From Escherichia coli (GTDB taxonomy: Bacteria > Pseudomonadota > Gammaproteobacteria > Enterobacterales > Enterobacteriaceae): 64,000 bases of DNA. Below the pieces are notes generated by a model. That model did no database searches. It was not told where the DNA came from and saw only the letters and a list, made by a program, of their open reading frames with translations. Position 1 is the stretch's first letter, and every line of letters starts with the position of its first letter. Below are positions 7,735-9,511 of this stretch, piece by piece. The stretch lies in the NCBI RefSeq assembly GCF_045037415.1, contig NZ_CP173438.1; one strand, 5' to 3'. A program made the translations under genes and the position numbers.

Positions 7735-7832
7735 ATGCCGGATCCGGCGGTTGGAGCACAATGCCTGATGCGATGCTGGCGCATCTTATCAGGCCTACGG
7801 GGTGTGTAGGGTACGCCGCATCCGGCAATCGG
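7735..7832. repeat. REP/BIME cluster (two inverted REP units) downstream of aer
   Basis: GCCTGATGCGATGCTGGCGCATCTTATCAGGCCTAC and GTAGGGTACGCCGCATCCGGCA palindromic units typical of enterobacterial REP elements. Confidence 0.7.
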
Positions 7833-7835
7833 TGA

Positions 7836-8459
7836 TTAATCCAGTTGGGTAATATCAAAAGCGGCGCGGTCGATCACCGCAATGATCTTTTTTATTTGTG
7901 CATCAGTGATATCGCTCTGGTTGACGCATAAATCCAGCACCGCTTTAAAATTATCCAGCGCCCGCTTCATTTGCGGGTTCTGGCGCAGCGCAGCGCCAAC
8001 GCAACGCGCTTTGATGCGTTCTTCAATCATCTCTACCTGTTCGCGGTTTTCTTCCAGCCACTGCGCGCCTTGTTCGGTCAGCGCAATCTGCTTCTTACCA
8101 CCTTCCTCTTCGCGGATGGTAATCAGCGACTGCTCCTGCAGAAAATCCAGCGTCGGGTAGATGACGCCCGGGCTTGGGGTGTAATTCCCCTGGGTCAGAT
8201 TTTCAATCGCTTTAATCAACTCGTAACCGTGGCTGTCATCGCGCGAGAGAATATCCAGAATCACCAGACGCAATTCACCGTGACCAAAGAAACGTTGCCG
8301 ACGACCGCCGCCGCGACCGTGGCGACCACCGCAGCATTGACCGTGTTCATGCTGGTGACCGTGTCCGCAGTGCTCGTGTTCTGACTTCTCACCTTTGCAG
8401 CAGCCCTCATGGCGTGGCTGGCCTTCATGTTTACAACACCCTTCGTGATGATGGCTCAT
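7836..8459 (-). CDS. yqjI: PadR-family metal-responsive repressor with His/Cys-rich N-terminal tail
   Basis: 207 aa ORF beginning MSHHHEGCCKHEGQPRHEGCCKGEKSEHEHCGHGHQHEHGQCCGG followed by a PadR-like winged helix region; divergent from yqjH. Confidence 0.85.
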   Translation of the reverse strand: MSHHHEGCCKHEGQPRHEGCCKGEKSEHEHCGHGHQHEHGQCCGGRHGRGGGRRQRFFGHGELRLVILDILSRDDSHGYELIKAIENLTQGNYTPSPGVIYPTLDFLQEQSLITIREEEGGKKQIALTEQGAQWLEENREQVEMIEERIKARCVGAALRQNPQMKRALDNFKAVLDLCVNQSDITDAQIKKIIAVIDRAAFDITQLD

Positions 8460-8479
8460 ATCAGCCTCCTTTTGCTTAA

Positions 8480-8723
8480 TTAGATATATCTAATTTATAT
8501 CTGATATGAGCATTACTGCAAGTACAAAAATGATTTTTAAACGCAGGTTTACTCAACATGTAGGCCGGATAAGGCGTTCACGCCGCATCCGGCATTGAGC
8601 AATGATGCTTGATAAGAGGTTGCGCGTCTTATCAGACTACAGATATATCAGTGCTACAAATCACTTGCATTTATCATGATTAACAATCATTATCATTTGT
8701 GGAATTTATTTAGATATATCTGA
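8480..8723. promoter_or_regulatory. Divergent yqjI/yqjH control region: three AGATATATC operator-like motifs, embedded REP unit, Fur box
   Basis: Perfect palindrome TTAGATATATCTAA near 8480-8493, related copies near 8639-8650 and 8710-8723; Fur-box-like ATGATTAACAATCATTATCATT near 8676-8697; REP sequence GTAGGCCGGATAAGGCGTTCACGCCGCATCCGGCA near 8560-8594. Confidence 0.6.
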
Positions 8724-8746
8724 TTACCATCACGAAGGCGATAACA

Positions 8747-9511
8747 ATGAATAACACCCCCCGCTACCCACAGCGCGTTCGCAATGATCTGCGCTTCCGT
8801 GAACTGACTGTGCTACGCGTTGAGCGCATCAGCGCCGGTTTTCAGCGCATTGTCCTCGGCGGCGAGGCGCTGGACGGTTTTACATCGCGCGGCTTTGACG
8901 ATCACAGCAAACTCTTCTTTCCTCAACCTGACGCTCACTTTGTGCCGCCAACGGTAACGGAAGAGGGCATCGTCTGGCCGGAAGGATCACGCCCACCGTC
9001 GCGTGACTATACGCCGCTGTATGACGAACTACGCCATGAACTGGCGATTGATTTTTTTATTCACGACGGTGGGGTCGCCAGCGGCTGGGCGATGCAGGCG
9101 AAACCGGGCGATAAACTTACGGTGGCAGGTCCGCGCGGTTCGCTGGTGGTGCCGGAAGATTACGCGTATCAGCTGTATGTCTGCGATGAATCCGGAATGC
9201 CCGCACTGCGCCGCCGCCTGGAAACGTTGAGCAAACTTGCTGTTAAACCGCAAGTTAGTGCGCTGGTTAGCGTGCGGGATAACGCCTGTCAGGATTATCT
9301 CGCGCACCTTGATGGTTTTAATATCGAATGGCTGGCACATGATGAGCAGGCGGTAGATGCGCGTCTGGCGCAGATGCAAATCCCTGCCGATGATTACTTC
9401 ATCTGGATAACCGGCGAAGGCAAAGTCGTTAAGAATTTAAGCCGCCGCTTTGAAACGGAACAGTATGACCCACAGCGGGTACGTGCGGCGGCTTACTGGC
9501 ACGCAAAGTAA
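8747..9511 (+). CDS. yqjH: Siderophore-interacting protein / NADPH-dependent ferric-chelate reductase
   Basis: 254 aa ORF with FAD-binding and NAD(P)-binding ferredoxin-reductase-like halves; preceded by a Fur box. Confidence 0.85.
   Translation: MNNTPRYPQRVRNDLRFRELTVLRVERISAGFQRIVLGGEALDGFTSRGFDDHSKLFFPQPDAHFVPPTVTEEGIVWPEGSRPPSRDYTPLYDELRHELAIDFFIHDGGVASGWAMQAKPGDKLTVAGPRGSLVVPEDYAYQLYVCDESGMPALRRRLETLSKLAVKPQVSALVSVRDNACQDYLAHLDGFNIEWLAHDEQAVDARLAQMQIPADDYFIWITGEGKVVKNLSRRFETEQYDPQRVRAAAYWHAK

Follow-up and report, generated by a model that had tools for sequence, protein, structure and literature searches.

We found that positions 8460-8746 of the window, a stretch of 64,000 nucleotides of E. 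coli DNA, are very likely the control region between the divergent genes nfeR (yqjI) and nfeF (yqjH), a region under NfeR and Fur that has already been characterised. The genes and their start signals are the following.

Positions 8460-8746: spacer between the divergent genes yqjI/nfeR and yqjH/nfeF, fitting the ends of the open reading frames exactly
Positions 7836-8459, minus strand: yqjI/nfeR, PadR-family repressor with a Cys/His-rich N-terminal extension (open reading frame, PF03551, RefSeq name NfeR)
Positions 8747-9511, plus strand: yqjH/nfeF, NADPH-dependent ferric-chelate reductase (open reading frame, RefSeq annotation)
Positions 8465-8471, minus strand: yqjI Shine-Dalgarno AAGGAGG, read from the sequence, 5 nt before the ATG at 8459
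Positions 8734-8738, plus strand: yqjH Shine-Dalgarno GAAGG, inside the conserved block CACGAAGGC

The gene identities and the divergent layout proposed in the initial annotation were borne out by the open reading frames and by the RefSeq names nfeR and nfeF. Its description of YqjI as a PadR-type regulator agrees with the PadR domain found in the protein (Pfam PF03551, E 4.3e-15), and a search of NCBIfam found no NfeR- or NfeF-specific model. The gene aer lies upstream of the pair, and tRNA-Ile, mug and rpoD lie downstream. The segment 8400-8800 is 100% identical to several RefSeq E. coli chromosomes, and the region was found in 5,421 of 5,426 complete E. coli genomes. Compared with K-12, the yqjI-yqjH spacer region showed 92.5% identity over 401 bp; REP or binding-site features are absent from the spacer annotation in the MG1655 RefSeq record.

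The His/Cys-rich N-terminal extension of YqjI is visible in the homologue alignment, and its length varies among genera. Lengths run from about 10 to about 70 residues, with the longest extensions in Citrobacter and Salmonella, and the DNA-binding core of NfeR and the operators are near-constant across genera despite this variation.

The repression by NfeR, its relief by nickel, the control by Fur and the communication between sites are taken from the literature and not from the window sequence. NfeR represses nfeF and nickel relieves the repression; in K. pneumoniae, deletion of nfeR raises nfeF 85-fold, and nfeR affects virulence in Galleria (PMC7981267). Furthermore, nickel induces nfeR, and nfeF belongs to the Fur regulon (PMC9508795). 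Going by their titles, one published study concerns the control of this spacer by Fur and YqjI (Wang, Wu and Outten 2011, J Bacteriol 193:563) and another the communication between the YqjI sites (Wang et al. 2014, J Bacteriol 196:3199). The region couples nickel stress to iron release from siderophores. Its regulation in K-12 has already been dissected, and the finding itself adds nothing new.

We compared 80 loci with YqjI relatives, taking one genome per species. In 76 of these Enterobacteriaceae loci yqjH lies beside yqjI in the divergent nfeR-nfeF layout. Conservation was assessed by ungapped anchoring and MAFFT alignment, with 77 loci compared. A few conserved blocks stand within an otherwise freely drifting AT-rich spacer: site II, gCAAg, the central TAAnnnnnTGATTTTnA, the middle cTATATCAAAAAA, CTTGCA, the core CAATCATTATCATT and site I. 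The most conserved blocks of the spacer in the 76 other species are the two palindromes, at sites II and I, together with the Fur core CAATCATTATCATT. In 11 Escherichia alleles, little or nothing changes in site I, site II, CTTGCA and the Fur core, and the remaining spacer diverges. Sites II and I are the operator candidates.

Positions 8480-8505: site II, composite operator candidate made of TTAGATATATCTAA (8480-8493) and the direct-repeat half-site TTTATATCTGAT (8494-8505)
Positions 8710-8723: site I, candidate operator TTAGATATATCTGA, located at the predicted yqjH transcription start or immediately after it

The perfect palindrome that had been noted beside the yqjI start was confirmed as TTAGATATATCTAA, 21 nt from the yqjI ATG. 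The motif copy noted beside the yqjH start was likewise found, within the palindrome TTAGATATATCTGA, which lies 24 nt before the yqjH ATG. In site II a second half-site, TATATCTGAT at 8496-8505, follows the first at a distance of 11 bp (one helical turn), and the consensus of the site across loci is TTnGATATATCTAATTTATATCTAA. The site II 22-mer GATATATCTAATTTATATCTAA is exact in 46 of the 77 loci and carries at most two mismatches in 69 of them; among the 11 Escherichia alleles the site is invariant or nearly so. The site I block TTAGATATATC is exact in 65/77 loci and within one mismatch in 76/77. Its sole variable position in the 11 Escherichia alleles is position 13, which changes from G to A in STEC308.

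Of 76 other species, 71 have exactly two copies of the palindromic core GATATATC in the spacer and four have three. Specifically, the spacers hold 155 copies in 20.6 kb, compared with 2 copies in 387 kb of flanking DNA. For a two-operator system, this distribution is about as strong as sequence-only evidence gets, and it supports the proposal that the palindromes are candidate YqjI operators. The two candidate sites are separated, one per promoter, and each overlaps a predicted promoter or start, as would be expected for operators of NfeR, a PadR-family protein.

The AT-rich repeats might instead be promoter elements (a -10-like TATA and an UP-like tract) of two sigma-70 promoters that face apart, and not operators at all. 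Two observations favour this: the predicted -10 TATAAA is part of the second site II repeat, and other genera have AAAAAARNR, a fit to the proximal UP-element consensus, after the middle element. However, a promoter needs just about six conserved bases, and here a palindromic block of 11 to 22 nt is conserved at both ends. The identical 8-mer is present exactly twice per spacer in 71/76 species and almost nowhere else, and the better-conserved yqjH -35/-10 pair lies before site I. We consider the promoter-element explanation very improbable and retain the two palindromes as candidate operators.

The motif AGATATATC, on which the initial annotation was built, occurs in the spacer at 8482-8490, 8641-8649 and 8712-8720, with one further copy at 45141 in the 64-kb window. 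Counting both strands of the window, we found 6 matches compared with 0.27 expected per 64 kb, and none of 100 shuffles reached 6. The count of three spacer copies holds in the window strain and fails in K-12, E04 and O157, where the middle copy reads AGACATATC. The fourth copy was rejected as an operator, its context AAGGAGATATATCCATG being that of a ribosome-binding site. It sits in the ribosome-binding site of a 598-aa open reading frame (43343-45139, minus strand; no NCBIfam match), and a 14/19 match to the Fur consensus lies just upstream of this frame, at 45168-45186.

Compared with the K-12 yqjH-yqjI region, the window holds the same locus and the same genes, and sites I and II, the Fur region and the Y-type REP unit are identical or nearly so. 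The window allele differs in its exact third AGATATATC, and the other differences lie mainly in the REP flanks. YqjI reportedly leaves a footprint at site I in the yqjH promoter and an extended footprint at site II in the yqjI promoter, which we take to be sites I and II of the window. The composite nature of site II would explain the extended footprint. Full repression of either promoter is said to require both sites; a shorter spacer reportedly disrupts the regulation, and mutation of the REP is said to affect it.

NfeR shares several features with PadR at padC and LmrR at lmrCD: a winged-helix PadR domain, a palindromic operator over the target promoter, an adjacent target gene and autoregulation. 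It differs from them in its Cys/His-rich N-terminal metal-sensing extension and in having two distant sites. Its palindrome consists of the abutting half-sites TTAGATA and TATCTAA, unlike the PadR and LmrR operators, which are of the ATGT-N8-ACAT type.

Two promoters facing away from each other were predicted in the spacer.

Positions 8494-8521, minus strand: predicted yqjI promoter, from sequence, with -35 TTGCAG (8521-8516), a 16-nt spacer and -10 TATAAA (8499-8494)
Positions 8664-8693, plus strand: predicted yqjH promoter, with -35 (C)TTGCAT (8665-8670), a 17-nt spacer and -10 CATTAT (8688-8693)

A strict consensus scan of 8400-8800 for promoters and terminators found none, with thresholds that exclude TTGCAN -35 hexamers, and the promoters were therefore inferred from conservation and from a K-12 report (PMC3946193). 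That report gives the K-12 yqjI promoter as TTGCAA-16-TATAAA, and the gCAAg block conserved across genera is the yqjI -35 on the minus strand. Of the predicted yqjI elements, the -10 falls within the second site II repeat and the start, at about 8487, within the palindrome. This placement would fit autorepression by occlusion. Site II overlaps the yqjI hexamers given for K-12 (PMC3946193), which we count in favour of the NfeR/Fur model.

For yqjH, the K-12 report offers an alternative promoter, TTAACA-18-TTTTAT (PMC3946193), which maps to window positions 8680-8685 and 8704-8709. Two assignments are thus possible. In 76 of 77 loci the Fur core follows CTTGCA at exactly 20 nt, and conservation favours TTGCAT-17-CATTAT as the yqjH promoter. 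Whichever of the two is right, the core promoter is overlapped by the Fur region, and the predicted start falls at site I or just before it.

Two perfect inverted repeats of 11 nt were also seen, both specific to E. coli, both without compensating changes among alleles and both possibly coincidental. The first (8454-8464 and 8501-8511) brackets site II and includes the yqjI ATG. An RNA hairpin that would hide the yqjI start through this repeat was rejected, because its 5' arm lies upstream of the predicted start (about 8487) and because the repeat is confined to E. coli, where the alleles CTGATGTGAGC and CTGATATAAGC lack a compensating change. The second (8440-8450 and 8728-8738) joins yqjI codons 3-6 (His-His-Glu-Gly) to the conserved yqjH ribosome-binding region; its alleles vary on one side only, and we regard it as coincidental or unexplained.

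The predicted yqjH promoter is overlain by the Fur region.

Positions 8671-8700: Fur-box region over the yqjH promoter, two overlapping 13/19 matches offset by 6 bp

A search for the Fur 19-mer with at most three mismatches found no match, and the region was rescored by counting matches. The best matches to GATAATGATAATCATTATC were 13/19, at 8676-8694 (plus strand) and 8682-8700 (minus strand), a level reached 20 times in the 64-kb window. In the 7-1-7 form, we found a 12/14 match at 8681-8695 plus an 11/14 match, with 5 matches in the window compared with 2.96 expected. Seventy of 77 loci share the Fur core CAATCATTATCATT (8684-8697) exactly, it is invariant in Escherichia, and yqjH has been listed as Fur-regulated several times (PMC9501238, PMC9508795, PMC3212961). 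Because of this near-absolute conservation of the core and the repeated listings, we consider the Fur assignment safe despite the moderate consensus match. A strong Fur box had been proposed before yqjH. The position of the site and its conserved core stand, and the word strong does not, with a consensus match of only 13/19.

Site II also resembles the Fur consensus, since 8483-8501 (GATATATCTAATTTATATC) scores 12/19 against the Fur 19-mer. On this ground it could be argued that site II is itself, or is also, a Fur site, that Fur and not NfeR controls yqjI, and that the GATATATC repeats are degenerate arrays of Fur hexamers. However, 12/19 matches number 118 in the window, and the AT-richness of site II probably accounts for its score. 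What is conserved in site II, TATATCTAA repeated at an 11-bp interval, is unlike the conserved Fur core CAATCATTATCATT before yqjH. Moreover, nickel was found to induce nfeR while Fur-regulated iron-import genes were repressed in the same experiment (PMC9508795). We therefore give control of yqjI by Fur at site II hardly any credence and keep site II as a candidate NfeR operator.

In the proposed mechanism, NfeR would bind the two GATATATC-centred operators. At site II (8480-8505) it would cover the -10 and the start of its own promoter, leading to autorepression, and at site I (8710-8723) it would lie at the start of the yqjH transcript. Fur-Fe2+ would bind the conserved box at 8671-8700 over the yqjH promoter. 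Under this arrangement yqjH would be made only at low iron, with Fur off, and/or when nickel inactivates NfeR. The 230 bp of DNA between the NfeR sites may form the arm of a loop or wrap, which in Escherichia would include the REP pair. The exact promoter positions, the looping and the roles of the middle motif and the REP pair are those that we infer.

The distance between the two operator candidates was then considered across the loci. Measured from start to start, site II and site I are 183-185 bp apart in 34 of 77 loci, 96-97 bp apart in the Enterobacter/Leclercia group, 217 bp apart in E. albertii and 230 bp apart in the window strain and K-12. Spacings among genera thus include 96-97, 120, about 184 and 217-230 bp, and a common helical phase is absent. 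Any looping would therefore have to accept very different arm lengths. The compact spacers of 96-97 bp, in which the central region is absent, occur in Enterobacter, Leclercia, Lelliottia and Silvania; they indicate that the two-operator module functions over very different distances.

Between the operators, near the yqjI promoter, lies a further conserved block.

Positions 8523-8543: central AT-rich block AAAAATGATTTTTAAA, counterpart of TAAnnnnnTGATTTTnA in other genera

The reverse complement of TAAnnnnnTGATTTTnA fits the IHF consensus WATCAANNNNTTR, with exact matches at a fixed position in 21 of 77 loci compared with 0.9 in shuffles. The window copy (8523-8535, minus strand) departs from the consensus WATCAANNNNTTR by 2 mismatches, and the central block is invariant among E. 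coli alleles. Beside this block, E. coli seems to be about 20 bp shorter than C. youngae, as judged by eye in one comparison. In genomic SELEX, the nfeF/nfeR spacer was the single target of PepA, a DNA-wrapping aminopeptidase (PMC8249747), and this status could bear on communication between the operators.

The layout resembles gal with HU and the IHF-assisted loops, where two like operators also lie about 100-230 bp apart at divergent promoters. Further points in common are the interdependence of the sites, as reported in the title of Wang et al. 2014, and a conserved central block whose sequence, in many genera, agrees with the IHF consensus. Unlike in those systems, looping here is only inferred, the E. 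coli central block carries 2 IHF mismatches, and the spacing lacks a shared helical phase among genera.

In E. coli, the DNA between the operators also contains repetitive extragenic elements, which would form a pair.

Positions 8560-8594, minus strand: Y-type REP palindromic unit, recognised as an inverted repeat and by its fold; the plus strand reads GTAGGCCGGATAAGGCGTTCACGCCGCATCCGGCA
Positions 8607-8640, plus strand: degenerate Z2-type REP unit GCTTGATAAGAGGTTGCGCGTCTTATCAGACTAC, separated by a 12-nt linker from the Y unit, which it faces, and ending in CTAC

The Y unit is a palindrome with 14-nt arms and a DNA fold of -13.6 kcal/mol (z -3.7), and it matches the Y consensus in full. The REP part of the query has a median of at least 38 places per E. 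coli genome, and the window copy is intergenic. The claim that a REP palindrome sits between the two promoters is well supported by these results. What had been described as one embedded REP would be a BIME-2-like pair, in which the Y unit and the degenerate Z2 unit stand in inverse orientation. The Z2-type unit aligns end to end with a Z-type REP at 7764-7799 and with the Z2 consensus, at a score that none of 2000 shuffles reached.

The 91-nt stretch of the REP pair folds as two DNA hairpins (z -5.7). The Rfam model naRNA4 (RF02564), which describes a two-hairpin unit of Z2 and Y, matches 8563-8638 over model positions 1-77 of 77, with 56.4 bits against a gathering threshold of 59.5 and E 6e-9. 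Apart from this naRNA4-like pair, no known RNA family was found in the spacer. With BIME-2/naRNA4 (RF02564, derived from REP325), the window pair has in common two GC-rich inverse hairpins, GTAG/CTAC ends and a match to naRNA4 over its full length. It differs in scoring 3 bits below the gathering threshold and in its degenerate Z2 unit. Unlike REPs in 3'-untranslated regions, it lies between divergent promoters and, judging by the predicted promoters, is probably untranscribed.

Placement between divergent genes is reported for about 1% of E. coli REPs (bioRxiv 10.64898/2026.03.23.713779), so it is indeed unusual, as had been suggested. The further suggestion that the REP insulates the divergent transcripts is improbable at the level of RNA, since each predicted promoter is directed away from it. 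For the same reason the REP should not be transcribed, and any role would be exerted at the DNA level. The usual roles of REPs in RNA, as terminator or as block to decay, should therefore not apply.

The REP pair was found in spacers of Escherichia only and is absent from 74 of 74 spacers outside the genus; with it, the operators stand 217-230 bp apart instead of about 184 bp. Two forms of the spacer exist within E. coli. The long alleles (the window, K-12, O157 and EPEC) carry the Z2-like unit. The short alleles are 11 bp shorter; their right half has decayed further, the outer stem of the Y unit is broken in some of them, and they make up about 30% of genomes as estimated from identity bands. 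The Z2-type unit is thus degenerate and allele-dependent: the short alleles and E. albertii, which they resemble, either lack it or show it in decay. Compared with K-12, identity falls to 70.6% in the left REP flank and 82.6% in the linker and Z2 unit, against 98.2-98.4% in the coding regions.

These data bear on whether the REP pair does anything at all. It may be selectively neutral junk that landed between the promoters and matters, if at all, as spacer length. Its absence from all 74 spacers outside Escherichia fits this explanation, and Enterobacter and Leclercia manage with a spacing of 96-97 bp and the whole central region missing. The differing decay of the Z2 unit from allele to allele, the broken outer stem of some Y units and the hypervariable flanks point the same way. 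On the other hand, conservation of the Y unit reaches 97-100% in most E. coli alleles, the unit was in place before E. coli and E. albertii split and has been kept since, and mutation of the REP reportedly disturbed YqjI regulation. We regard neutrality as a serious contender that falls somewhat short of an even chance.

The end of the Z2 unit runs directly into the middle copy of the motif.

Positions 8641-8649, plus strand: middle AGATATATC copy, directly adjoining the CTAC end of the Z2 unit; counterpart of cTATATCAAAAAA upstream of the yqjH -35

The K-12, E04 and O157 alleles, which read AGACATATC at this place, fall in the 90-95% identity band that holds about 48% of genomes. In most loci of other genera, cTATATCA lies 15-17 nt before CTTGCA, compared with 21 nt in E. 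coli. The middle element of genera other than Escherichia reads cTATATCAAAAAA(RNR), just upstream of CTTGCA, and its A-tract is replaced in E. coli. The element of the other genera would fit a half-operator fused to an UP-like tract (AAAAAARNR).

We give nearly an even chance to the possibility that the middle AGATATATC is a functionless by-product of the REP insertion junction and that only two operators exist. The copy abuts the CTAC tail, it is altered in an identity band of about 48% of genomes, and exactly two GATATATC copies are present in 71 of 76 other species. However, most genera lacking the REP have a conserved cTATATCA at 15-17 nt upstream of the yqjH -35, and the middle element shares the TATATC half-site of the operators. 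The conservation in genera without the REP suggests that the middle position is older than the REP insertion. The middle motif could be a third NfeR half-site that would compete with the alpha subunit of RNA polymerase or simply part of an UP-like region, with about equal probability.

A bolder explanation combines these elements: insertion of the Y and Z2 units would have remodelled, in the Escherichia lineage, an ancestral two-operator NfeR module with about 184 bp between its sites, a central IHF-like site and an UP-like tract, degrading the central site, possibly with an accompanying deletion of about 20 bp. The pair would now allow the operators to communicate, for example as a target for gyrase, HU or PepA or as a cruciform. 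We hold this combination to be unlikely. If it is true, the responsiveness of nfeF to nickel and iron would differ measurably among E. coli lineages according to the allele they carry (long or short form, T or C in the middle motif). The locus offers a natural test of whether promoter architecture can recruit a mobile repeat. Taken together, the REP polymorphism, the central block and the selection by PepA suggest an architectural story, and the classification of the region is unchanged by it. The comparative value is modest and lies in the definition of the operators across 76 species, the polymorphic REP pair found only in Escherichia and the central block conserved elsewhere.

A separate REP cluster was seen at 7737-7826, between aer and yqjI, consisting of the Z-type unit at 7763-7799 and partial units. 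The aer-yqjI spacer carries an indel relative to K-12.
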